From Patescibacteria group bacterium (GTDB lineage Bacteria > Patescibacteriota > Patescibacteriia > S139-126 > S139-133), in the NCBI GenBank assembly GCA_049604715.1, contig JBMYTV010000001.1, positions 91,610 through 155,609 of the forward strand: a DNA stretch of 64,000 bases, written 5' to 3'. The translations under genes were made by a program, and so were the position numbers. The first letter of the stretch is position 1. Every line of letters starts with the position of its first letter. Below are positions 4,917 through 40,960 of this stretch, one piece after another. The notes beneath the pieces are model-generated. The model made no database searches and was not told the origin of the DNA. It saw nothing but the letters and a program-made list of their open reading frames with translations.

Positions 4917-6551
4917 TTAGTCTACTTCTTCTTTTTTGTCTCGGACAAAAGATGTGATCTCTTCAAATGATGACACAATAAACTTATATGGTGCCTCAAT
5001 CACATAATCAAGGAAGAAGATGAAAAAGTTGATGCGTCGTGAGTTAAGTGAGATAAAGCGACCAGCTCTGATAATTGGTAGTGTAAACAAGTCAAAGATA
5101 AAGGTGAAAATGTTCTCTCTTTTACCAAGAACATTGAGTTCACGGGCACCAAGCCTCAAGCGAATACCAAAGAATGAAATCAATGTTAGGAATAAGATAA
5201 ATAGGAGACTAGAGACAATACTGAAGTTAAGACTTCGTAGTAGGTAGATGATTAGGCCAAATGTAATCAAGTAAATGATCAAATAAAATACATTGATAAA
5301 TATCCAACTGGCTGATCCAAACTGCGATGATTTGCGGAATTTTGCAACAATGGGCTTCATCTCTTCTCCATATACTAACTTTTTCACACCTTCCAAGATT
5401 TTCTTGGTATTTTTTTCTTTTGGAACACGTGTTGTTAATATTATAAGTGCCATCAAAAATGGAGGGAATAAGACATTGATCAAGACAGAGGGGTAGTGTA
5501 TTTCCTGTAGAATAAACATGTCATACGGTACTTCAACAGCTACCGCAACAATAACTTTAGTAAGGAAAATGTAAATCACAGATCTTATAGCGCCGCGGCG
5601 AAGTTTTTTGCGGGCGTTACCGTACCGTTTGTTTGCAGCCTTTTTTATCTCGTCTTCAAGTTGATTTGTGTAGCTAAGCGTGCGTTTCAGATGATCTCTA
5701 TTCTCTGCAAAGAGATCATTTAGGATCAAAAAGTAAACAGACAAGTTGTGTAGTCGTTTTTGTAGTATTTCACCAAGGGGGTGCTTGATCTGATGACTAA
5801 TAGCATGAACGAGCTTTGGGAAGTTGTCAGCAACTTTCATGATCACATCAGTCTGCGTGCCATCCCAGTTAGGGAAATAGAATTTGAACAAATAATATCG
5901 GAGTAGTGTTTCGTCTGATTTAATAATGTTTCTGTGAATAGCAATATAAATCTGGATATTTCGTTCCTTGTCGGTCGCAGGGAAGTTTCGGATATCTATC
6001 CTGGGTTTAACTATTCTGTAGAGTGTTTCAACTAGCGCGTCTTCACGAATAGGGGGTATGATTGATTCTTCAATTTCAGCTGCCATGATCTCCCAGATGA
6101 ACTGGTGGTACTCTTTAAGTTCATTACGTTTGTAGCGCATTCCGAGCTGGTCATAAAGCGTGATGTACTTATTGATAATGTTGGCTACGTCTTTGGCTTT
6201 GTCTTCAGGAATAGCATCATTTGGGAGGTATTGAGCGCGGATAAGTTCATGTAAAAGTGTTTCAGCAATGATCCCTGGATCTTTTCTGTTCATGCTCACT
6301 ACGCGCTTTGATATACGCTCAATAGCACTGCGTCTGAGAAGGTGGTCGTCTTTGTAATCAACGCTGTAGCGTAGCTTTTCATACAAGAGCGCCATTTTGC
6401 TTGTTATATAATTGAGCTTTATTTTGGGTTCTTTGTCTTTGTATAGCTCAATACCAAAAGGACCCTCATACACTTGTGCGAGGTTCTGGATGTCACTGTC
6501 TATGTCTTGTGTGCGGGATGGTTGACTCTGTGAAACTGCTTGCAGCGGCAT
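4917..6551 (-). CDS. hypothetical protein: large soluble N-terminal region with polytopic membrane C-terminal region
   Basis: 544 aa. About 330 aa of charged alpha-helical-looking sequence, then about 5 hydrophobic segments in the last 200 aa. No confident family assignment. Confidence 0.6.
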   Translation of the reverse strand: MPLQAVSQSQPSRTQDIDSDIQNLAQVYEGPFGIELYKDKEPKIKLNYITSKMALLYEKLRYSVDYKDDHLLRRSAIERISKRVVSMNRKDPGIIAETLLHELIRAQYLPNDAIPEDKAKDVANIINKYITLYDQLGMRYKRNELKEYHQFIWEIMAAEIEESIIPPIREDALVETLYRIVKPRIDIRNFPATDKERNIQIYIAIHRNIIKSDETLLRYYLFKFYFPNWDGTQTDVIMKVADNFPKLVHAISHQIKHPLGEILQKRLHNLSVYFLILNDLFAENRDHLKRTLSYTNQLEDEIKKAANKRYGNARKKLRRGAIRSVIYIFLTKVIVAVAVEVPYDMFILQEIHYPSVLINVLFPPFLMALIILTTRVPKEKNTKKILEGVKKLVYGEEMKPIVAKFRKSSQFGSASWIFINVFYLIIYLITFGLIIYLLRSLNFSIVSSLLFILFLTLISFFGIRLRLGARELNVLGKRENIFTFIFDLFTLPIIRAGRFISLNSRRINFFIFFLDYVIEAPYKFIVSSFEEITSFVRDKKEEVD

Positions 6552-22608: not shown

Positions 22609-23115
22609 ATGGGCTTTGATATTACTCCTCCGAAAAAAAGACGACCAGTAAAGCAGCCGCAGGCAAAACCTGCGTCTCGTCCTGCTGCGCCAAAGGCTAC
22701 CACACCACCAAAATCAAATACTCCAAAGAGACAAGCGCCAAAGCAAACAAAGCCTAAGCGCAAAAAGAAGGTTTTTGGAAAAGTTATATCTATGTTGATC
22801 ATTTTAGCCTTGGTCGCAGGAGTTGTGTATGCGTTTAGGGAAGGGTATATTGTGTTACCTGAAACAGCTGACAATACTATTACGGATACAGTAGATGACA
22901 ATACGATCGTAGCGACGTTTGGAGATGAGCCAGCAGAAGATGATTTGGAAGAGGAGGAGACAGAGGATGAGGGTGTGGATGTTATAAATGATCCACTCAT
23001 GAGTGCACACCTTGATTTTGTACAAATGGTTGAGTCTTTGCCAGAGGAGCCGCAGCTGGCTGGTTATGATTTACGTGAGGTTCAATTGTTAAATACATAT
23101 GTTAATGACTTTTAG
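22609..23115 (+). CDS. hypothetical membrane-anchored protein (Pro/Lys-rich N-terminus, one TM, acidic C-terminal region)
   Basis: 168 aa. PPKKRRPVKQPQAKPASRPAAPK...TM...EDDLEEEETEDEG. Confidence 0.5.
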   Translation: MGFDITPPKKRRPVKQPQAKPASRPAAPKATTPPKSNTPKRQAPKQTKPKRKKKVFGKVISMLIILALVAGVVYAFREGYIVLPETADNTITDTVDDNTIVATFGDEPAEDDLEEEETEDEGVDVINDPLMSAHLDFVQMVESLPEEPQLAGYDLREVQLLNTYVNDF

Positions 23116-23920
23116 ATCAGTTACAACTTTTTTTGTGTTACTCACTATGGTGTTTTCCATAGGGTATGTTGCAGTGGCACAAGAATTGGATAGTGATCCT
23201 GGTGATCTGCGAGAAGTATTTTTGGATGCTCGTGATACTTTTTTTGAAAGTCAGACCACTGCTAATCAGGAGATTTATATAGAACAAGCTCGTCAGTATG
23301 CGCTGGCAATAACTGAAGCTCAAGAAACATTTATCATAGCTACTGAGAAATCAATGTATGATAGTCTTCGTATTAAGGATACTGTTCCACAAAATTGGCT
23401 TGAACAGGAGAAAGTTGACATTGATACATTTCGAGTGAGCCTAGATGATGCAACCAACTATGCACGGATACAAGCGATTATGCGTGATAATGCCGAGTAT
23501 TGGCAAAGAGTACAAAACAAGATTCAGGAAATGCGAGCATGGTATGCGTTTGATCAATATGCAGTACTATTAACTAACTCGCGCCTTATCCGCGACGCGT
23601 TATTGTCAGCACAAATAGATGTTGAGCAGCAGCTACAGGTTACGGGAGTTGCTGATGTTGACTTTGATTCTTGGCGCAGTGTGTTTGATGCTTACTCTGA
23701 GAAGTTGGTTGTTCTTGAGGATGAACTAGATCAACAGCGCGGTGTATTTTCTGAAACCGACTATACCACACTTGATGAAGAGGATGCTGAATGGCAGAAG
23801 GACCTTGAATACCTAAGAACACTAAAAGTAGAGATGTTGGCACTTAGTCAATTACAAGAAGCTTCTATCAACCAATTTCTAGCAACAGTATCAGCTTATG
23901 TCGTTCCAGTAACAGAATAG
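23099..23920 (+). CDS. hypothetical secreted protein
   Basis: Signal peptide MLMTFRSVTTFFVLLTMVFSIGYVAVAQ. Helical/coiled-coil-like remainder. Overlaps the previous gene by 17 nt. Confidence 0.5.
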   Translation: MLMTFRSVTTFFVLLTMVFSIGYVAVAQELDSDPGDLREVFLDARDTFFESQTTANQEIYIEQARQYALAITEAQETFIIATEKSMYDSLRIKDTVPQNWLEQEKVDIDTFRVSLDDATNYARIQAIMRDNAEYWQRVQNKIQEMRAWYAFDQYAVLLTNSRLIRDALLSAQIDVEQQLQVTGVADVDFDSWRSVFDAYSEKLVVLEDELDQQRGVFSETDYTTLDEEDAEWQKDLEYLRTLKVEMLALSQLQEASINQFLATVSAYVVPVTE

Positions 23921-23921
23921 T

Positions 23922-25361
23922 ATGACCAAAGACAAGACAATTGTTGAATCATTTTCAGGGGTAAGAGGGGTTTTTGGTGAAGGAATTACAACTGAACTTG
24001 CACGCGCGTATGCGCGTGCTTTTGTTGATATTTTACTTGAGCGTAATGATTCAGTTATATTCGTTGTTGCATCTGATACAAGAGACTCATCAAAAGAACT
24101 GCGTAGTATATGGGTTGAAGAAGCGCAGAAAGCTGGCGCCCTAGTATATGATATAGGTGCTACTACTACACCGGTTGCATTTCACTATGTACGAGAAGTC
24201 AAAGCGCATGGCGGTGTGATGATAACTGCATCACATAACCCACCAGAGTATAATGGCTGGAAGTGCATTAGCGCTTTGGGTACTATGCTTGAGCCAGATG
24301 ATATGGATGAGTTGATTGATAAAGCGCACAGTAATAGCAACCCTAAAGGAAGTGGTAAGGGAGAAGTAAAAGAACATAAAGCAGTGGCTGTTGATGCGTA
24401 TATACAGTATCTGAAGTCGCACTTCTCTGAGCAAGAAGTTGAGATGATTAAATCTTTTTCAGGTAATGTTGTTCTAGATCCAAACGGAAGTGCTGTCTGG
24501 AGTGTTTTGCAAAAGGTGTGTGATAACTTTGGTATTGCACATCATGGTATAAGAACAAGAGAAGGTATATTTGAGAGGCTTATTGAGCCAAACAATGAAT
24601 CACTCCAAGACGTAGCTGAGATTGTATCGGAGCAAGGTGCTTTATTTGGCTGCGGGTTTGATTGTGATGCAGATCGGGTTGAGTTAGTGTTGCCTCACGA
24701 TTGTGAGCGAGCAAAAAGTTATGGCCCAGTTGTATCTGGACAGTACGTGCTAGCCCTTGGGGTTGATGCAGTATTATCATCAGCACAGGGTAAGGTGCCA
24801 AAGTCTCCACCAGTTGTAGTGAACTATGCAACATCTTCTTTGGTTCGTGATATCGCCAAGAAATATAAAACAGAAACAATTGAAGTGGATGTAGGTGAGA
24901 TTGTAGTCATTATGGCTATGCGTAAATATGGGTCACTTGTCGGAGGGGAAGGTAGTAGCAGTGGTATGATTGCAAAAGATGGGGTTTGTAGAGATGGTGT
25001 TTTAGTTTTTTTACTTACCATTTTGCTGTTATCCAGTAGAGGCAAGACTTTAGTTGAGCAACTAGATTCATATCCCCAGTACTATGATTTACGAAGCAAG
25101 GAGACTGTTGATCCAGATAAGATGTTGGCTATTCGAGAGGGTCTTTTGAGTTACTACGGTAAATTGGGGTATACTATTGTTACTAATGAAGATGATCCTA
25201 GCTCAGGGATAAAGATAAATATTGATAATCAGGCTTGGGTTTTTTATAGGGCTTCAAGAACTGAACCTGGTCAATATAGAATTATTGTAAATGGACCTGA
25301 TAAACAGCAGCTTGATATACTACTTGCTCAGGCTCAAGAGTTATTTAAATCATTAACGTAA
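23922..25361 (+). CDS. phosphoglucomutase/phosphomannomutase family protein (paralog 1)
   Basis: Active-site serine loop TASHNPPEYNGWK. Metal-binding GFDCDADR. 479 aa. Confidence 0.85.
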   Translation: MTKDKTIVESFSGVRGVFGEGITTELARAYARAFVDILLERNDSVIFVVASDTRDSSKELRSIWVEEAQKAGALVYDIGATTTPVAFHYVREVKAHGGVMITASHNPPEYNGWKCISALGTMLEPDDMDELIDKAHSNSNPKGSGKGEVKEHKAVAVDAYIQYLKSHFSEQEVEMIKSFSGNVVLDPNGSAVWSVLQKVCDNFGIAHHGIRTREGIFERLIEPNNESLQDVAEIVSEQGALFGCGFDCDADRVELVLPHDCERAKSYGPVVSGQYVLALGVDAVLSSAQGKVPKSPPVVVNYATSSLVRDIAKKYKTETIEVDVGEIVVIMAMRKYGSLVGGEGSSSGMIAKDGVCRDGVLVFLLTILLLSSRGKTLVEQLDSYPQYYDLRSKETVDPDKMLAIREGLLSYYGKLGYTIVTNEDDPSSGIKINIDNQAWVFYRASRTEPGQYRIIVNGPDKQQLDILLAQAQELFKSLT

Positions 25362-25368
25362 AGAATAT

Positions 25369-26805
25369 ATGCAGATTAATCCACTTGTGTATCGCGGATA
25401 TGACATCCGTGGCGTGGCAGGAGAAGATTTTACTCCAGAAAAAGTTGAGGCACTTGGCCGTGGTTTTGGTACTATGCTTCGCAAAAGAAAGATTCGTCAA
25501 ATGGTTTTGGGGTATGATGCTCGTTTAACAGGGCCCGAATACTCAGAAGCTTTTGCAAAAGGTGTTATATCAACAGGTGTTGATGTAATTGATATCGGCA
25601 TGGTCATGATTCAGACTATTTATTTTGCTCAGTATTATTTTCAAGTAAATGGAGCTGTGATGATTACTGCATCTCATAATCCAGCAAGTGATAACGGGTT
25701 CAAAATGGGCATGCGTTTTTCACAGACGATTGTAGAGGAGATTCAAGAGCTCAAAGATATTGTGGCAAGCGACGCTTACTGGGATAAGGACGACTTAGTC
25801 GGTACAATTAGAAAGGATGATGTAAATGAAGCTTACTACCAAGACATCATTAAGCGGAGTAACATTACCAAGAAGTTTAAGGTGGTTGTTGATACAGGTC
25901 ACGGAGTTGCGGGAAAATTCATACCTGAGCTTCTTGAGAAAGTAGGTTGTGAGGTTGTTGGGCAGATGCTTGAGCCAGATGGCTCATTCCCAGCAGGTAC
26001 ACCTGACCCAACTGATAATGAAATGATTAAACGTGTTCAAGAGCGTGTCAAAAAAGAAAACGCTGATCTTGGTTTTGCATTTGATGGTGACGGCGACAGA
26101 ATTGGTATAGTTGATGATCAGGGTGAGGTCATTTGGAATGATGAGTTGTTGGCTATTTTTGCGCGAGAAATTCTTACACGTTTTCCAGGAGCAAAGATCA
26201 TTTATAACACTCTTTGTTCACAAGCAGTAAAGAAAGTTATTGAACAGTACAAAGGAGAGCCAATTATGTGGCGGGTAGGGCACTCATACTTAAAGGAGAA
26301 ATTAGTTGCAGAAAAAGCCTTTTTCGCTGGTGAGCTTTCAGGGCACATGTTCTTTGCAGATAACTTTTATGGTCATGATGATGGTAGTTTTGTTGCATGT
26401 CGGTTACTCGACTTTTTGAGTGAAGTAGATAAGCCCCTGAGCGAGGTTAGAAAAGAGATGCCGCAGTATATCTCTTCACCTCAAATTAAGATTGGTTGTG
26501 ATGATAAAAAGAAGATAGAAGTAATAAAAAGATTAGCTCAAGAGTTTCGTGATGACTTCAAAGGCGCTGAAATTACTGACGATACAGTAATTCCAGGAGA
26601 TGACGGGGTAAGAGCTGACTTTGATGATGGTATGATAGTGCTTCGATATAGTCAAAATGGTCCTTATGTTACATTCAAATTTGAAGCTAGCAACGAAGAT
26701 GTATATGAAGAACGTCGTTTGTATTTAAAAGAAAAGCTACAGGCTGTAGAAGAGCTCGAGTGGGAGAGTAATCACAGTACAAATGCAGATTTTATTTTAA
26801 AATAA
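25369..26805 (+). CDS. phosphomannomutase/phosphoglucomutase (paralog 2)
   Basis: YDIRGVAGEDFT N-terminus. TASHNPASDNGFK. GFAFDGDGDR. 478 aa. Confidence 0.85.
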   Translation: MQINPLVYRGYDIRGVAGEDFTPEKVEALGRGFGTMLRKRKIRQMVLGYDARLTGPEYSEAFAKGVISTGVDVIDIGMVMIQTIYFAQYYFQVNGAVMITASHNPASDNGFKMGMRFSQTIVEEIQELKDIVASDAYWDKDDLVGTIRKDDVNEAYYQDIIKRSNITKKFKVVVDTGHGVAGKFIPELLEKVGCEVVGQMLEPDGSFPAGTPDPTDNEMIKRVQERVKKENADLGFAFDGDGDRIGIVDDQGEVIWNDELLAIFAREILTRFPGAKIIYNTLCSQAVKKVIEQYKGEPIMWRVGHSYLKEKLVAEKAFFAGELSGHMFFADNFYGHDDGSFVACRLLDFLSEVDKPLSEVRKEMPQYISSPQIKIGCDDKKKIEVIKRLAQEFRDDFKGAEITDDTVIPGDDGVRADFDDGMIVLRYSQNGPYVTFKFEASNEDVYEERRLYLKEKLQAVEELEWESNHSTNADFILK

Positions 26806-26831: not shown

Positions 26832-28235
26832 ATGATATCAAGAGTATTTTTTTCCTTTTTAGCAGCCGTTATGCTGGTGACAGCTCTCCCAGTAGTTGCT
26901 GAAAGTGATCTCAATTCTGAGATTAGTGCCGAAGAAGTCGGTGAATCATCGGCAGAGGTTAATGAGGCTGATGATGAAGAAGCAATTACCGTTGATAGGC
27001 GCGGTATGCTTATTGAAATTGGTAATACAACTGCTGAGCAAACAACTATCATTGTCCGCGTAGGTGAGGGTGAAGAAGAGGAGGATGTTACATTGGAGAT
27101 TACATCTGACACTGTTTTGAATACTCAGTCAGGCACAACAGCTGACCTCTCAGATTGGATAGCTGGCGACCAAATTCGTTTTGTTGCGGAGGAATTTCAA
27201 AATAGTGAACAGTTAGTTGCTACCAAGGTGTGGAATCTATCGTTTGAGCGGAGACACAAAGGTAGAAATGGATGGATTGCTGCGATTCGTTTGGATGAAA
27301 ATGAAATGGATGTTGAGTGGGCTGACCAGATTTACACACTTGATGTTTCTGATGCTCGTATGGTTGCTGGTAATGTTAATCCAGCATCACTTGAAGACTT
27401 TGAGGTTGGCGATCGTATTCGTGCTCGTGTGACCGAGGATGGTGATGGTAATAACTTAACTTGGGATGCTGAGATTGTAGTTGTGCTTCGTAGGGGCAAT
27501 GACTTGTTTATGCGCGTGACACGTTGGGTAGTCCCTGGTGTTATTGTCGCCATGCCAAGTGATAACACAGTGCCAACAACAATAGATGTTGAAGTTCTAG
27601 ATAGTAAGTTCTATGAAGAAGGGGATGTGAACAACTTGGTTGGCGCTCCAGGAAGTATTATTCAGGTTGATATTACTGAAGATACAAAACTTGTCCGTCG
27701 TTTTCTTGGTAGAACTAATTTGGATGAGTTTAGTGAAGGTGATGTAGTTAGGGTTATTGGTAGGCGCGATGAAAACACAGGCCACCTTGTAGCAAAGGTA
27801 GTTAAGAATAACAATATACAGAGACTAGGAGTAGGTAATAAGATTGGTTCGGTTGTAGAAGTAAATGAAGAAGATGGCACTATTGTTGCTGAGCTCACAC
27901 ACGCAGATGTTGATGGTACATATACAGTAACGGTCAATGGCGATACACTGGTTATGAAACTCGGACAGGAGATTAACTTGAGTGATATTTCTGAAGGTGA
28001 TCTAATCCGCGTACGTGGTACATACCATCGTTCTGATCGCAATGTGGTCAGTAATAAAGTCAGTGTAGTTGTGAGAAGTGATGAGATAGGTGATGATGTT
28101 GTTGATGTAGATGAACTTCGTGAGCGTTTTGAAATTAGATTAGAAGAGCAAAGAGCGCGTATGCGAGATTTTCTTGATAATCGATTTGAAGCACTACGAA
28201 CTCGTATGCAAGAGCGTTTTGAATCTCGTTTTTAG
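26832..28235 (+). CDS. secreted acidic protein with four internal beta-type repeats and C-terminal coiled coil
   Basis: Signal peptide. Four ~35-aa repeats sharing the core [DE]-x-S/F-x-GD-x-[IV]R[VFA] (DWIAGDQIRFVAEE, DFEVGDRIRARVTED, EFSEGDVVRVIGRRD, DISEGDLIRVRGTYH). C-terminal ELRERFEIRLEEQRARMRDF. Confidence 0.6.
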   Translation: MISRVFFSFLAAVMLVTALPVVAESDLNSEISAEEVGESSAEVNEADDEEAITVDRRGMLIEIGNTTAEQTTIIVRVGEGEEEEDVTLEITSDTVLNTQSGTTADLSDWIAGDQIRFVAEEFQNSEQLVATKVWNLSFERRHKGRNGWIAAIRLDENEMDVEWADQIYTLDVSDARMVAGNVNPASLEDFEVGDRIRARVTEDGDGNNLTWDAEIVVVLRRGNDLFMRVTRWVVPGVIVAMPSDNTVPTTIDVEVLDSKFYEEGDVNNLVGAPGSIIQVDITEDTKLVRRFLGRTNLDEFSEGDVVRVIGRRDENTGHLVAKVVKNNNIQRLGVGNKIGSVVEVNEEDGTIVAELTHADVDGTYTVTVNGDTLVMKLGQEINLSDISEGDLIRVRGTYHRSDRNVVSNKVSVVVRSDEIGDDVVDVDELRERFEIRLEEQRARMRDFLDNRFEALRTRMQERFESRF

Positions 28236-35611: not shown

Positions 35612-36484
35612 ATGGCTCTTGATCCATACACAGCAGTTTGGGTTTCACACACTTCTATAAGTGATTTTTTGGCCTGTCCAAGAAGTTATTTTTTAAAAAA
35701 CGTGTATAAGGATCCAAAGACAGGGAATAAGATTCAGGTTATGTCACCACCACTGGCGCTTGGTCAGGCTGTGCATGAGGTTTTAGAGAACTTGTCAGTT
35801 GTACCAACAGATAAGCGTTTTGACACTCCGTTGATTGAGAAATTTGAGGAATCCTGGAAAAGAGTTGCCGGCAAAAAGGGTGGTTTTTGGGATAAGGACA
35901 CTGAGCATAGGTATAAGCAACGTGGCATTGATATGATCAAAAGGGTTCAGGCACATCCGGGTGTTTTGGCAAAAAAGGCAGTAAAGATTAACATGGATTT
36001 GCCGCATTTTTGGCTTTCAGAAGAAGAGGAGATTATTTTGTGCGGCAAGATTGATTGGCTCGAATACAATGAAGAAAATGATTCAGTGCATATTGTAGAC
36101 TTCAAAACAGGGAAATCAAGACAAACTCAAGAGTCACTGCAGCTTCCAATATATATGCTACTAGTAAATGAGTGTCAAAAAAGAGAAGTTGAAGCTATTA
36201 GTTATTGGTATCTTGAGTCAGCTGACGAGCCAGAAACACAGCCTTTGCCAGATCCGGATCAGTCACGCAAGAAAGTTCTTGATATTGCACGGCGCGTGAA
36301 AGTCGCCAGAAAGCTAGAAAAGTTTGATTGTCCGCATAATGGATGCTCAAACTGTGCGCAGTACGAGGCTGTATTGAGAGGAGAAGGGGAGCATGTTGGG
36401 GTGAATGCATTTCGCCAGGACGTATACATTGTGAAGCCAAAAGCAAAATTATCAGACAGTGAGGAGGATAGTCGGATATTATAA
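35612..36484 (+). CDS. PD-(D/E)XK nuclease with Cas4/AddB-like Cys cluster
   Basis: Motifs GKIDWLE, IVDFKTGK (D..E-K core) and QLPIYM (Q-h-x-x-Y). Cys22 plus C-terminal CPHNGCSNC gives the 1+3 Cys arrangement of Fe-S nuclease domains. 290 aa. Confidence 0.7.
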   Translation: MALDPYTAVWVSHTSISDFLACPRSYFLKNVYKDPKTGNKIQVMSPPLALGQAVHEVLENLSVVPTDKRFDTPLIEKFEESWKRVAGKKGGFWDKDTEHRYKQRGIDMIKRVQAHPGVLAKKAVKINMDLPHFWLSEEEEIILCGKIDWLEYNEENDSVHIVDFKTGKSRQTQESLQLPIYMLLVNECQKREVEAISYWYLESADEPETQPLPDPDQSRKKVLDIARRVKVARKLEKFDCPHNGCSNCAQYEAVLRGEGEHVGVNAFRQDVYIVKPKAKLSDSEEDSRIL

Positions 36485-36485
36485 C

Positions 36486-37151
36486 ATGCATCAAGAGTAC
36501 GACATTAGGCGGAGTAAACGCAAAACATTAGCACTGGAGATTGATGCCAGTGCTCGTTTAATAGTACGCGCGCCTATGCGTCTTGCGCTTCGTGATATAG
36601 AGGCTTTTATTCGACAAAAAAGAACATGGATACGAAAAGGTCTTCAAGAAATGGAAAAGGTAAAGCAAGTCCGAGAACGAGAGCGTTTTTTTGAAGGAGA
36701 CACAGTGTTGTATTTAGGAAAAGAGCATACAGTTCGTTTTGATGATGTGAAAAGATGTACCATAGTAGATGGTATTTTTATTCTGCCGATCGCCGTACAA
36801 GGTCAGGCACAAAAGTATGTTCACATGTGGTATGCCAAACAAGCTCGTTTGTATATAGCGCCGCGGATTCGTGAGCTGGCAAGTGTTTTGGGGTATAGGA
36901 TTACAGGTATTAGGATAACATCAGCAAAAACGCGCTGGGGTTCATGTAGTGCTAAGGATACGATCAGTATCTCGTGGAGATTGCTGCAAGCACCGTCTAA
37001 AGTTATAGAGTATGTGATAATACATGAACTCGTTCATACTATACATAAAAATCACAAAACTAGATTTTGGCAACGAGTAGCAAAGCACTGCCCTGAATAT
37101 AAAAAGCATGTGAAGTGGCTAAGGGATAATAGTCATGTTTTGGGAATGTAA
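36486..37151 (+). CDS. DUF45/YgjP-family zinc metallopeptidase-like protein (M48-like)
   Basis: HELVHTIHKNHKTRFW (HExxH...NH..FW) signature. Start at the internal Met 1 nt after the nuclease stop. 221 aa. Confidence 0.75.
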   Translation: MHQEYDIRRSKRKTLALEIDASARLIVRAPMRLALRDIEAFIRQKRTWIRKGLQEMEKVKQVRERERFFEGDTVLYLGKEHTVRFDDVKRCTIVDGIFILPIAVQGQAQKYVHMWYAKQARLYIAPRIRELASVLGYRITGIRITSAKTRWGSCSAKDTISISWRLLQAPSKVIEYVIIHELVHTIHKNHKTRFWQRVAKHCPEYKKHVKWLRDNSHVLGM

Positions 37152-37181
37152 AAACCCTACTCATTTTGAGCAGGGACGTTG

Positions 37182-37717
37182 TTATCTTTTGTAGCAAATA
37201 TTACCTTCACCAGTACCTCTTTTGGCAGAGGTTTTATACCATTGGTGTGAGAGTTTCTGTACATTGATTCTTAATCTTCCGGCGATGGTGGACAGGTCCG
37301 TGCTGGTGAGACAGACTCCAGAATATTGTGTGGACGGTTTTTGTCTGAGTTCACTGACCAGGCGGTCGATCAGTTTGGAGCTCGCGTTTCGTTTGAGTGA
37401 TCTCCCTCGTTTTTTTTGGCGCCGGCGAAGCAGAGAGTATCCGATTGCGCTAAGTAGCAGCGTCAGTTTTGAGTCCGGTTTCAGTTGAAGCATAATCTAC
37501 TCCTTTACAGGTTTGCCATTTTAACTTTTACAGTTTGTTCACTTCTGGAGTGAGACAGCTTTACTCTTCTGATGCCAAGTAGCTGTGCGAGGCGTTCCAG
37601 CTCTGGGTTGGTTAATTTTTTACCACTGTACTTGTGGTCATTGCCTGGGTAAGTTTCCAACCTTTCAGCTAGAAGCAAGATTCTATCTCTTCCTTTCATC
37701 TTGGTAAATCCTTTCAT
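37182..37717 (-). pseudogene. GC-rich degenerate gene remnant (two adjacent short ORFs in different frames), possibly mobile-element derived
   Basis: 70-aa and 103-aa minus-strand ORFs separated by 11 nt. Basic HTH-like N-terminus (KGRDRILLLAERLE...LTNPELERLAQLLGI). Local GC is clearly higher than the flanks. No intact family recognised. Confidence 0.3.
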
Positions 37718-37866
37718 TGCTTAGTTTAACTTGTGAAGTTGCATTTACGAGAAAATTATCTCGACATGCTTTACTATACTGATATTTTATTAAACTGTCA
37801 ATATAAAGTTCACAATCTGTATTTGTTTCCGTTTTTGTGCTATAGTTAGCTTAAATAAGCTATTTT

Positions 37867-38202
37867 ATGGTAGAGGCATTGCAACCATTTTTAATATTCG
37901 TTTATTTACTGGGTATGGCAGCGCTACTTGGCGGCTTAATCGCTCAGTGGGGTGAGCGAACATATCATGTAGAACGAGCGCTATTGTATGGCGTTTTTTT
38001 GCAGCTTATCGCAAGTGTTGTTTATGTGTTCACAAGTAGTGTGGCAACAGAGCTGTTATCTCATATGCTCAGAGTGATAGTGCTATGTGCTATTATAGTT
38101 ATTTTGCTTGTGGCAAAACAAAGAAAATTTTCATGGAACGCATACCATAGCGTACTTGTGTTGGTAATAGCAGAGCTTGCTATAGGGGTATTTTGGTTTT
38201 GA
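37867..38202 (+). CDS. small membrane protein
   Basis: 111 aa, three hydrophobic helices. Confidence 0.45.
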   Translation: MVEALQPFLIFVYLLGMAALLGGLIAQWGERTYHVERALLYGVFLQLIASVVYVFTSSVATELLSHMLRVIVLCAIIVILLVAKQRKFSWNAYHSVLVLVIAELAIGVFWF

Positions 38203-38276
38203 TAGGTTAATTGACACTACAGTTGAAGAGTAATATACTACCTCTCTTAAGTCTAAAGGGGAGTTATTTATTTGCT

Positions 38277-39746
38277 ATGAAGGTATTAGTAGTAAAAAAC
38301 TATAAAGAGCTGTCGCAACGTGCGGCAACTTTTTTATTAAATCATGTTGCGCTTGAGCCACGCAGTGTATTTGGTTTGGCCACAGGTTCAACTCCAGAAG
38401 GAATGTATAAAGAGATTATAAATGCTACAAAAAATTTGTCTTATGACTTTTTTCATTGTAAAACTTTTAATCTTGATGAGTATGTGGGGTTAAACCCCGA
38501 GCATGAGCAAAGCTATCATGCGTACATGAACAGAGAGCTCTTTGATCATATACAGATTCAGAAAGAAAATATTCATATTCCAGAAGGACACAAGAATAAT
38601 CTTGAAAAACAGTGCGAGGCTTACGAGAGACATTTAGAACGACACCAGGTAGATGTTCAGGTATTGGGTTTGGGGGCTAATGGGCATATTGGTTTCAACG
38701 AGCCAGGTAGCGCGTTTACATCTCGCACACGTGTTGTTGATTTAACTCCTGCAACCATCAAGGCAAATTCTCGGTTTTTTGATACCAAAGCTTCTGTACC
38801 AAAAAAAGCTATAACAATGGGCATAGCGACCATTATGCAGGCAAAGAAGATAGTGATCATTGCAAATGGTGAGCATAAAGCGCGAGCAGTAAGACAAATG
38901 GTAGAAGGAAAGGTGAGTACAGCATGCCCTGCAAGTATTTTGCAGAACCATCCAGATGTGACCGTTATAGTTGATAGAGCGGCAGCTAAGCTTTTGAAAA
39001 ATGATTATTCAGATCATAAAAACGGTTGGACTGACGTGCGTATTCTAAACAAAAACGTGTTACCGCAATACAAAAATGTGTTAGTGGTATCACCGCATCC
39101 AGATGACTCAGCAGTTAGCAGTGGTGCAACTATTAGGGCTCTATTTGAGCAAAACAATGTCACTATCATGGCGATGACGTCAGGGTATCGTGCTGCTATA
39201 CCCGGAGCTGACAAAAAGAAACGTATTGCTGCCCGAAAAAAAGAAGCTTTGGCTGAGGCAAAAAAGCTGCAAGCAGATTTGTTGTTCCCAGAGTTTCATT
39301 TTTATGACCAAGGAAGAAAAAAATGGAAGCAAGATCTTAAGAAATTCGGTAAACTCTGGAAGTCAATCAATCCGTCTGTGGTTATACTTCCGCATCAGTA
39401 TGATGAGCACCCAACTCATAGATATAGCACAGCGCTTGTAGAGGACTATATCAAGCAAGAAAAGGTTAAGCAGTTAGAGCTTTGGTATTATGAGAGTGTC
39501 TGGTCGCAGCATTTGCTTACAAGTATTTCACAAGTCTTTTGTTACAACGAAGAATTGCATGATGTTAAGAATGCTGCAATTAACAGCCATACTAGTCAGG
39601 TAAAGCGAATACCGCTTGTAGAGATTACTGAGAATTTATCTCGTTTTAGGGCTCTTACTATACCTGAGCAGAAGTTTGTAACCTATGGACAAGAGCCTAT
39701 TAACCTAAGTAGTTTTGTAGAGGCGTATCATATAGAGAAAAGGTAA
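38277..39746 (+). CDS. nagB: fusion protein: glucosamine-6-phosphate deaminase (NagB) domain plus PIG-L/LmbE-family N-acetylglucosaminyl deacetylase domain
   Basis: N-terminal ~265 aa: GLATGSTPEGMY, FNLDEYVGL, LGLGANGHIGFNEPGS (NagB/6-phosphogluconolactonase fold). C-terminal ~210 aa: VLVVSPHPDDSAVSSGATI (PIG-L HPDD motif) and further His/Asp metal ligands. Start at the internal Met MKVLVVKNY. Confidence 0.75.
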   Translation: MKVLVVKNYKELSQRAATFLLNHVALEPRSVFGLATGSTPEGMYKEIINATKNLSYDFFHCKTFNLDEYVGLNPEHEQSYHAYMNRELFDHIQIQKENIHIPEGHKNNLEKQCEAYERHLERHQVDVQVLGLGANGHIGFNEPGSAFTSRTRVVDLTPATIKANSRFFDTKASVPKKAITMGIATIMQAKKIVIIANGEHKARAVRQMVEGKVSTACPASILQNHPDVTVIVDRAAAKLLKNDYSDHKNGWTDVRILNKNVLPQYKNVLVVSPHPDDSAVSSGATIRALFEQNNVTIMAMTSGYRAAIPGADKKKRIAARKKEALAEAKKLQADLLFPEFHFYDQGRKKWKQDLKKFGKLWKSINPSVVILPHQYDEHPTHRYSTALVEDYIKQEKVKQLELWYYESVWSQHLLTSISQVFCYNEELHDVKNAAINSHTSQVKRIPLVEITENLSRFRALTIPEQKFVTYGQEPINLSSFVEAYHIEKR

Positions 39747-39784
39747 GTGGTTGATTATTTTTACATTCTCATTCATAATCGCTA

Positions 39785-40960
39785 GTGAAATATATGCAAA
39801 CATCACTAGTTGAACAAATATTTTACTCAAGCAAAGAACTGTTGAATTCTGTCCGAACTGAACATGGTTTTATTGCGGCTGCAGAAAGCGCTGCTTCTCA
39901 AAAAAGAGGATATACAAGTATATTTGGTAGGGACGCTAGCATGTGCGCACTTGCAGGCCTTGTTTCTGAGGACGAGGGGCTAATTGAGGCAGGAAAGCAA
40001 TCTCTTATTACTCTTGCTGAACATGCTTCTGATATTGGTCAGATACCATTTTCTGTAAATACAGAGCGCAAGCTTGTGAAGTACCGAATGCCACAAAGTA
40101 TTGATAGTACTATTTGGTGGCTTTTAACTTTTTGGTTATATACTCAAAAATTATCTGACACATCATTAAAGGCACAGTATTATGCTGCGTTTCAGGAAGG
40201 TATTACTTGGCTTCAAAACCGCATGCAATATGGCTTGCTGGAGGAGGGAGAGGGAGCGGGTTGGGCTGATGAATTACCTCGTAGTGGTATGGTTTTGTAT
40301 ACGAACGCATTGTGGCTTCTCTTTTTAGAGCATATTAAAAGTGCAGAACGTAAAGCTATTTATCATAATTTTCTATACTTTTTTGATTATCATACTGATA
40401 CTGTAAGGGGTTACCCAGAGCTGCAACGTCAGTTCCCAAACTTTAGGAATAATCTCAAGAAGACAAAGCGGAAAAGTCAGACATTTTATGCAAGTGTGTC
40501 ACGGTTTAATTTGAATGAAAGTATAGATGTATTTGGCAACACACTCGCTTGTATATCAGGAGCGCTACCACGTACACGAGAGCGTGCGATTTTAAAAGAA
40601 CTACAGGATGTTGCAGACGAGAGCCCGTTTTTGATTCGAAGTATGCCTGAGCCAGAACGACTTCACCAGGGAATCTTTGAGGCAACATTTCAAAATCGTG
40701 CTTGGCAATACCATAACGCTGGGGTGTGGCCGATGATTGGTGGTTGGTATGTGTATGCGCATGCTAAGGCTGGTAATATGCGAGTTGCTCATGAAGCACT
40801 TGAGAGGCTCGCAGAGGTTAATAGTCTCGAAAAGCATCCATTTCCAGAGTGGATACATGGAAGGACAGGTAAAACTATGGGACTTGATAGGCAAGCATGG
40901 AATGCAGCTGTCTATATACTAGCTTATAAGGCTGTAACCGAGGGTACCTTCTTGGTGTAG
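39785..40960 (+). CDS. (alpha/alpha)6-barrel glycoside hydrolase (GDE_C / GH100 invertase-like)
   Basis: 391 aa. Pattern of Trp/Gly-rich helices (IWWLLTFWLY, GAGWADE, NAGVWPMIGGWYVYA) typical of six-hairpin glycosidases. Assignment by fold resemblance only. Confidence 0.55.
   Translation: MKYMQTSLVEQIFYSSKELLNSVRTEHGFIAAAESAASQKRGYTSIFGRDASMCALAGLVSEDEGLIEAGKQSLITLAEHASDIGQIPFSVNTERKLVKYRMPQSIDSTIWWLLTFWLYTQKLSDTSLKAQYYAAFQEGITWLQNRMQYGLLEEGEGAGWADELPRSGMVLYTNALWLLFLEHIKSAERKAIYHNFLYFFDYHTDTVRGYPELQRQFPNFRNNLKKTKRKSQTFYASVSRFNLNESIDVFGNTLACISGALPRTRERAILKELQDVADESPFLIRSMPEPERLHQGIFEATFQNRAWQYHNAGVWPMIGGWYVYAHAKAGNMRVAHEALERLAEVNSLEKHPFPEWIHGRTGKTMGLDRQAWNAAVYILAYKAVTEGTFLV

Follow-up and report, generated by a model that had tools for sequence, protein, structure and literature searches.

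A 'long version' of nagB, the gene for glucosamine-6-phosphate (GlcN-6-P) deaminase, which carries a conserved C-terminal extension, was described in Entamoeba, ciliates, Bacteroidetes and Rhodopirellula by Andersson et al. in 2006 (PMC1484493), and the gene has been named nagB-PIGL in a 2026 paper that counts bacteria of the candidate phyla radiation (CPR) among the donors to ciliates (PMC13198582). NCBIfam holds this long form as PRK02122/NF002557, a 'glucosamine-6-phosphate deaminase-like protein' of ~600–690 aa, with BT_0258 of Bacteroides thetaiotaomicron and the Gemmatimonadota, Planctomycetota, Entamoeba and ciliate copies as examples. The NagB–PIG-L architecture is hence already known and widespread in databases, where it is superficially annotated. 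Here we describe a compact relative of 489 aa, encoded on the plus strand at 38277..39746 of a 64,000-nt stretch of a Patescibacteria contig (GCA_049604715.1, JBMYTV010000001.1; the whole stretch is hereafter called the window), and the question that it poses is whether an LmbE-fold domain can act as an analogue of NagA, the N-acetylglucosamine-6-phosphate (GlcNAc-6-P) deacetylase of amidohydrolase fold. The explanation that we find best as a whole, and to which we give about an even chance, is that the gene encodes a bifunctional GlcNAc-6-P deacetylase/GlcN-6-P deaminase, that it is a compact member of the nagB-PIGL family, and that the GH100-like gene behind it is unrelated. The features of the locus are as follows.

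38211..38239, plus strand: promoter-like site TTGACA-17 nt-TATACT with 11 of 12 consensus matches; a consensus match only, 37 nt 5′ of the ATG
38277..39746, plus strand: NagB–PIG-L fusion coding sequence, 489 aa plus stop
38277..39005, plus strand: NagB (GlcN-6-P deaminase) domain, residues 1–243, monomeric Bacillus type
38472–38483, plus strand: NagB motif LDEY (D67)
38679–38708, plus strand: NagB motif NGHIGFNEPG (H137, E142)
39006..39062, plus strand: interdomain linker, residues 244–262 (YSDHKNGWTDVRILNKNVL); ~60 aa longer in long forms
39063..39743, plus strand: LmbE/PIG-L zinc-deacetylase domain, residues 263–489
39084..39746, plus strand: 'PIG-L deacetylase family protein' MGB0756964.1 as annotated by NCBI, 220 aa, starting at an internal GTG (codon V270)
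39096–39107, plus strand: HPDD motif (H274, D276, D277) within VLVVSPHPDDSAVSS
39408–39419, plus strand: HPTH motif (H378, H381)
39785..40960, plus strand: GH100/GDE_C-like (alpha/alpha)6 protein, by Pfam

The original prediction, which was made from the sequence by reading it, had placed NagB and PIG-L in one polypeptide, and the profile scans bear this out, with both domains above their cut-offs and the linker lying between them. The N-terminal half matched Pfam Glucosamine_iso (PF01182, residues 20–225: E = 5e-24, 85.8 bits versus a cut-off of 27) and the NCBIfam nagB equivalog TIGR00502 (302.5 bits versus a curated cut-off of 236.9), and the C-terminal half matched Pfam PIG-L (PF02585, residues 269–390: E = 7e-18, 65.9 bits versus 28.2, profile positions 1–127 of 129). 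In the sequence search of PDB, the N-terminal half was matched by the B. subtilis NagB 2bkv (E = 3e-67), onto which residues 1–243 of the AlphaFold2 (AF2) model were superposed with a root-mean-square deviation of 1.0 Å, a template modelling (TM) score of 0.96 over 242 residues and 47% identity. The NagB catalytic residues, on whose presence the original prediction depended, were all found and align with those of 2bkv: D67, E142 and K201 are invariant across 58 homologues, H137 is conserved in at least 90% of these and occurs in every one of the 23 short forms, and R166 is conserved in at least 90% of the short forms. Following the established NagB literature, we take D67, H137 and E142 to be the catalytic Asp, His and Glu, and K201 and R166 to bind phosphate. 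The monomeric B. subtilis enzyme has the same catalytic motifs as the window NagB, and both carry N at the position that corresponds to Asp141 of the E. coli enzyme. The B. subtilis enzyme differs in being a stand-alone protein of 242 aa encoded beside nagA, whereas the window NagB continues into a C-terminal LmbE domain and has no nagA nearby. A NagB activity of the N-terminal half (GlcN-6-P → fructose-6-phosphate (Fru-6-P) + NH3) is strongly indicated by these matches. The NagB of the Flavobacterium johnsoniae ChiUL could not be expressed by Larsbrink et al. (PMC5127042).

The C-terminal half carries the signature of LmbE enzymes, whose site consists of a His2-Asp zinc site and a general-base Asp (HxDD ... 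HxxH) (PMC4101496). The HPDD motif, already pointed out in VLVVSPHPDDSAVSS by the original prediction, is followed by HPTH, and all five residues (H274, D276, D277, H378 and H381) are invariant in the 58 homologues and aligned with those of Dac, TT1542 and BshB. A Foldseek search with the AF2 model placed this half in the LmbE fold, with matches to Pf-Dac 4xm0, Dbv21 3dfi, Orf2* 6iiy and BC1534 2ixd (E = 1e-10 to 9e-10, probability 1.00). By sequence, the best PDB matches were the Thermococcales diacetylchitobiose deacetylases (Dac) 8bgn, 3we7 and 3wl4 (E = 3e-8 to 7e-7), and TT1542 and BshB were little worse (E = 5e-6 to 8e-6). Dac and the window PIG-L domain share aligned HPDD and HP(D/T)H zinc motifs, and Dac has a role in amino-sugar catabolism; their similarity is, however, weak (E ~1e-7) and confined to residues ~259–393, and Dac is a stand-alone enzyme with the unphosphorylated substrates GlcNAc2 and GlcNAc (PMC4101496). 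In contrast to Dac, the window protein ends in ~95 residues that are specific to its subtype, with the conserved residues W403, W409, K431, H438, S440, Q441, R444, R458 and E482, and no sequence counterpart of this residue set was detected in the solved LmbE enzymes. Both domains are complete, with their catalytic and metal-binding residues conserved, and both appear catalytically competent.

That on the 208,711-bp source contig only the last 220 aa (MGB0756964.1) bear a protein annotation from NCBI could suggest that a frameshift, from sequencing or assembly, had merged two genes, a danger that the original prediction had itself raised. We regard this as hardly credible and rejected it, since the open reading frame (ORF) runs uninterrupted from 38211 to 39746 on the plus strand without any in-frame stop between the two halves, and an independent Logan assembly contains an ORF of 507 aa (P0386) that is identical to that of the window at 506 of 507 positions over its whole length. 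The same colinear two-domain layout also recurs in dozens of homologues, i.e. ~39 database clusters of 475–525 aa and 33–56% identity. Moreover, AF2 modelled the 489-aa fusion from the 58-sequence alignment as a single well-packed body (predicted local distance difference test, pLDDT, 94.8; predicted TM score, pTM, 0.91), its confidence dropping only at the linker (pLDDT 78 in residues 241–250); no PDB chain covering both domains was found by Foldseek with this model. In the public annotation of the source contig, MGB0756964.1 stands directly before the GH100 protein MGB0756965.1, and neither a full-length nor a NagB-half protein of the source genome turned up in protein databases. Because its start is the internal GTG at V270 and no in-frame stop lies upstream, the 220-aa call itself appears to be an annotation artefact, by which the fusion was split or truncated in the public record.

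The ATG at 38277 (MKVLVVKNY...) is likely the start of the fusion, because it is aligned with the N-termini of 22 homologues and because the upstream TTG at 38211 belongs to the −35 hexamer of the promoter-like site. A Shine–Dalgarno-like GGGGAG lies between that site and the ATG, and Rfam and tRNA scans found no RNA element in or near the fusion gene.

Compared with the long form, the window protein has the same domain order and 31–37% identity over ~90% of the query, and its PIG-L domain shares with it the metal motifs and the subtype invariants W403, Y405, W409, K431, H438, S440, Q441, R458 and E482. It is, however, without three parts of the long form, namely the ~60-aa interdomain segment, an N-terminal extension and ~45 aa inserted within the PIG-L domain; the first and the last of these are missing from all short forms aligned. 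For want of these three parts its NF002557 score, 286 bits in three stretches, stays under the cut-off of 384. Sequence comparison places the window protein in the long-NagB family, as a member of a compact clade of Patescibacteria and small-genome archaea. Compact forms were found in Patescibacteria-type contexts (L001, L086 and L087) and in two archaeal ones, one with split Rpb1, L7Ae, Rpb4, L21e and Spt5 (L088, 8001–9467) and one with the mevalonate genes AcnX/UbiD (L089, 8001–9458), the archaeal fusions measuring 485–488 aa. This distribution suggests that the compact fusion has been exchanged between Patescibacteria and small-genome archaea. A scan of genome contigs by a NagB motif, which is universal, returned mostly stand-alone Firmicutes NagB and a single full-length fusion (L004).

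The company kept by this PIG-L subtype was surveyed by searching the PIG-L half alone against 1.84 billion representative proteins and assigning architectures by Pfam and NCBIfam. The strong matches comprised many fusions of ~480–510 aa and two further architectures, namely NagB + PIG-L + PGM/PMM (P0250, 942 aa) and PIG-L + PGM/PMM (P0246, 702 aa). The triple fusions (P0250 and P0387–P0400; L090 10001–12829 and L125 7756–10584) make up at least 15 distinct 90% clusters of 940–946 aa and lie on contigs of up to 893 kb, and no mention of this family was found in the literature searched. The PIG-L halves of the triple and of the PIG-L–PGM fusions are 33–36% identical to that of the window (E = 8e-34 and 6e-37), and the closest non-triple relative of the triple fusions is a short form (P0028). 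They have the same short-form NagB and PIG-L subtype as the window protein and differ from it by an extra C-terminal mutase, whose best match is the archaeal GlmM TIGR03990 (334 and 311 bits in the fused mutase parts), whereas the mutase-like genes of the window are separate and 13 kb away. In a metagenome scan with the same subtype, which yielded 45 loci at E ≤ 1e-28, NagB was encoded in the same ORF at 43 loci and by the adjacent upstream gene at the other two: in L095 (9205–10658), at a contig end, nagB and the PIG-L gene are separate with a 4-bp overlap, and in L101 (9169–12052) a separate nagB precedes a PIG-L–PGM fusion. An SSF-family transporter adjoins the module in L095, L101 and L090, and a GT4 glycosyltransferase does so in L090 and L101. 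This series of fusions and fissions, i.e. triple, PIG-L–GlmM-like and split pairs, is the best of the new evidence and lends circumstantial support to the idea that the deacetylase feeds the deaminase.

The NagB link of the subtype is not absolute, because a stand-alone member of 253 aa with 38% identity (P0242) was found in L091 (154–3227) with no nagB beside it; a GH15 glucoamylase-like gene and a LamG-domain gene lie near it. The same PIG-L subtype was also seen in ORFs of ~560–740 aa from peat and soil metagenomes (L107, L109, L111, L115, L116, L119, L120, L122, L123, L126, L128, L131, L132 and L136), whose NagB-like domain, which precedes the PIG-L part, is far more divergent (E ~1e-30 versus ~1e-100) and which have an apparent N-terminal extension of 80–340 aa that may partly reflect the choice of the earliest start codon. 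Weaker PIG-L matches fused to GT2 or radical-SAM domains (P0313, P0333, P0368 and P0377) belong to other PIG-L subfamilies and were set aside.

In the mechanism that we propose, the fusion gene would encode one bifunctional cytoplasmic enzyme, whose C-terminal LmbE/PIG-L domain, a zinc-dependent de-N-acetylase, would most likely convert GlcNAc-6-P to acetate and GlcN-6-P, and whose NagB domain would isomerise and deaminate GlcN-6-P to Fru-6-P and ammonium; alternatively, GlcN-6-P could be diverted by a GlmM-like mutase toward UDP-N-acetylglucosamine (UDP-GlcNAc) and the cell wall. The direction of flux and the substrate of the deacetylase (GlcNAc-6-P) are both inferred, the latter from the fusion partners: the PIG-L domain would yield GlcN-6-P from GlcNAc-6-P because NagB and GlmM, to which it is fused, both act on GlcN-6-P, which by Rosetta-stone reasoning would be the metabolite most simply common to the three modules. 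In E. coli, NagA serves the same GlcN-6-P branch point. The proposed reaction and pathway position of the PIG-L half equal those of NagA, supplying GlcN-6-P to NagB and GlmM, but the two share no homology and differ in fold and metal site; the PIG-L half may work like NagA without belonging to its family. Profile scans found no Amidohydro_1/NagA homology in the fusion protein, and no NagA or other amidohydrolase was present among the ORFs of at least 300 aa in the 64-kb window, a minor fraction of the whole genome. The proposal agrees with the known LmbE enzymes, in which acetyl is removed from GlcNAc moieties (PMC4101496), and with the long form BT_0258, which is induced on mucin and N-acetylglucosamine (GlcNAc) (PMC13634575).

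Several observations weigh against this proposal. Characterised LmbE enzymes are not known to use sugar phosphates; a review that covers PIG-L, MshB, BshB, the teicoplanin/A40926 deacetylases, Mca/Bca, BtrD and TkDac has no occurrence of the word 'phosphate' in its main text (PMC4101496). The PIG-L half finds its closest PDB sequences in diacetylchitobiose/GlcNAc deacetylases, enzymes for unphosphorylated sugars, and no report of a biochemical assay of a NagB-fused PIG-L domain was found in the searchable literature. Nor must the PIG-L domain take the place of NagA, since B. thetaiotaomicron encodes three NagA paralogues besides its long form (PMC13634575). The fused mutase parts score under the GlmM equivalog cut-off of 439 in TIGR03990. 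Gene neighbourhoods likewise lend no help, as neither a GlcNAc kinase nor a transporter is linked to the fusion gene, sugar kinases, transporters and nag regulators show no consistent linkage across the loci examined, and the neighbours of the short forms are housekeeping genes that vary by lineage; de novo clustering of the neighbours at 52 loci recovered synteny at the level of lineages (EF-Tu, ribosomal proteins, UvrD, RecX, KAS) and no nag operon, kinase or glycosidase. As for the original prediction that deacetylation feeds deamination within one enzyme, it is plausible and has gained circumstantial support from the linkage to NagB at 45 of 45 loci and from the GlmM-like fusions. With about equal belief and doubt, we suggest that the NagB-fused PIG-L domain is a GlcNAc-6-P deacetylase, an LmbE-fold, non-homologous analogue of NagA and the first LmbE enzyme with a sugar-phosphate substrate, which would form with NagB, and in some lineages with a fused GlmM-like mutase as well, a GlcN-6-P hub on one polypeptide by which scavenged GlcNAc could be both burned and recycled in DPANN-like archaea and in Patescibacteria with reduced genomes.

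The two domains could also be arranged in other ways. In a Thermococcales-like route, which we think unlikely, the PIG-L domain would, like archaeal Dac, deacetylate free GlcNAc or chitobiose and a separate kinase would phosphorylate GlcN to make the GlcN-6-P for NagB, so that the fused steps would be non-consecutive. Dac as the best solved-structure sequence match, the additional Foldseek match to Pf-Dac 4xm0, the presence of the short form in archaea and the characterised LmbE substrates, which are all unphosphorylated at C6 (PMC4101496), speak for such a route. However, Dac is only marginally ahead of TT1542 and BshB and its match spans the N-terminal ~60% of the domain, the two fusion partners, NagB and a GlmM-like mutase, speak for a hub of sugar-6-phosphates, and neither a glucosaminidase nor a GlcN kinase is linked in any of the loci examined. 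Quite unlikely, in our view, is an anabolic role, in which NagB would run in reverse (Fru-6-P + NH4+ → GlcN-6-P) and provide amino sugars for the cell envelope where GlmS is lacking, and the PIG-L domain would act not on GlcNAc-6-P but on a GlcNAc-glycoside intermediate in the manner of MshB, BshB or PIG-L. GT4–LmbE pairs occur in mycothiol and bacillithiol synthesis, of which L090 and L101 are reminiscent with a GlmM-like mutase and a GT4 glycosyltransferase beside their modules, and the window carries GlmM-like genes and MurI; protists, too, use NagB-type isomerases for cyst-wall synthesis (PMC3581238). Yet the GT4 linkage is seen in just two related loci and neither in the window nor at other short-form loci, and joining the opening step of a pathway to its final one would be a less economical arrangement than joining two consecutive steps.

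Should GlcNAc-6-P indeed be deacetylated by the PIG-L half, bifunctionality would extend to thousands of genes that at present bear the plain label 'glucosamine-6-phosphate deaminase' in Bacteroidota, Gemmatimonadota, Planctomycetota, Patescibacteria, archaea and some protists, pathway reconstructions in which nagA serves as the marker of GlcNAc use would be wrong for the genomes carrying them, and the LmbE superfamily would gain a new substrate class. Taken by itself, the window gives a modest result, a well-conserved copy of a known fusion of which the public record annotates only the C-terminal half.

The gene downstream of the fusion had been predicted to encode an (alpha/alpha)6 glycoside hydrolase-like protein, and its Pfam matches agree, to Glyco_hydro_100 (PF12899: E = 7e-17, 61.7 bits versus 23.6, covering only profile positions 293–430 of 435) and to GDE_C (E = 7e-11, 42 bits over the whole length). 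It is 100% identical to MGB0756965.1, annotated as 'glycoside hydrolase 100 family protein', and has GTG 39785 as its start in the program-made ORF list, the 388-aa NCBI call implying ATG 39794. Its best PDB matches are the cyanobacterial alkaline/neutral invertases 5z73 and 5goo, than which it is ~70 aa shorter, and its motifs IDSTIWW and FPEW align with VDSCLWW and WPEY of 5z73; motifs of this type presumably hold the catalytic residues of invertases. Its many homologues at 35% identity among Proteobacteria bear the labels glycogen debranching enzyme or GH100. The original prediction had further joined this glycosidase with the deacetylase and the deaminase into one compact amino-sugar salvage route. 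The gene does follow the fusion on the same strand after 38 nt with no terminator-like site, and co-transcription of the two is possible in the source genome. We nevertheless hold the joint route to be very unlikely and abandon it, as the glycosidase resembles GH100 invertases, a search within 10 kb of the fusion at ~52 other loci turned up no GH100 homologue, and a syntenic relative (GCA_015485655.1; L084/L085) keeps the GH100 gene without the fusion, with SpoU and PspC at that place. The backbone retained in this relative reads Lit–TMEM175–PDDEXK–small transmembrane (TM) protein ... GH100–AI-2E–S9 hydrolase–TRAM methyltransferase–UppS–epimerase–ParAB. Judged by this gene order, with GH100 kept where the fusion is absent and absent where other fusions stand, the GH100-like gene is a chance neighbour, its pairing with the fusion unconserved and without a tie to amino sugars.

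Upstream of the fusion, the window carries two mutase genes:

23922..25361, plus strand: phosphohexomutase with archaeal-type GlmM as best match (TIGR03990, 270 bits, below the cut-off), 13 kb upstream of the fusion
25369–26805: tandem PGM/PMM paralogue with PgmG as best match (NF046027), below the equivalog cut-off

The first of them is a candidate user of GlcN-6-P in the source genome, a link to the fusion that is drawn from the fusions of other genomes. Three further ORFs gave no Pfam family at E ≤ 1e-4, namely 4917–6551 (minus strand, 544 aa), 23099–23920 (plus strand, 273 aa) and 26832–28235 (plus strand, 467 aa), the last showing just a CusF-like match under the threshold. From the PD-(D/E)XK nuclease gene to the GH100 gene (36459–38202 in the window versus 5593–7952 in L084), the syntenic genomes are variable. 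Two small minus-strand ORFs within this stretch of the window (37182–37493 and 37505–37717) had no Pfam match, and the window has there a YgjP-like metallopeptidase, a 111-aa membrane protein and the fusion, where L084 has a SpoU methylase and PspC.

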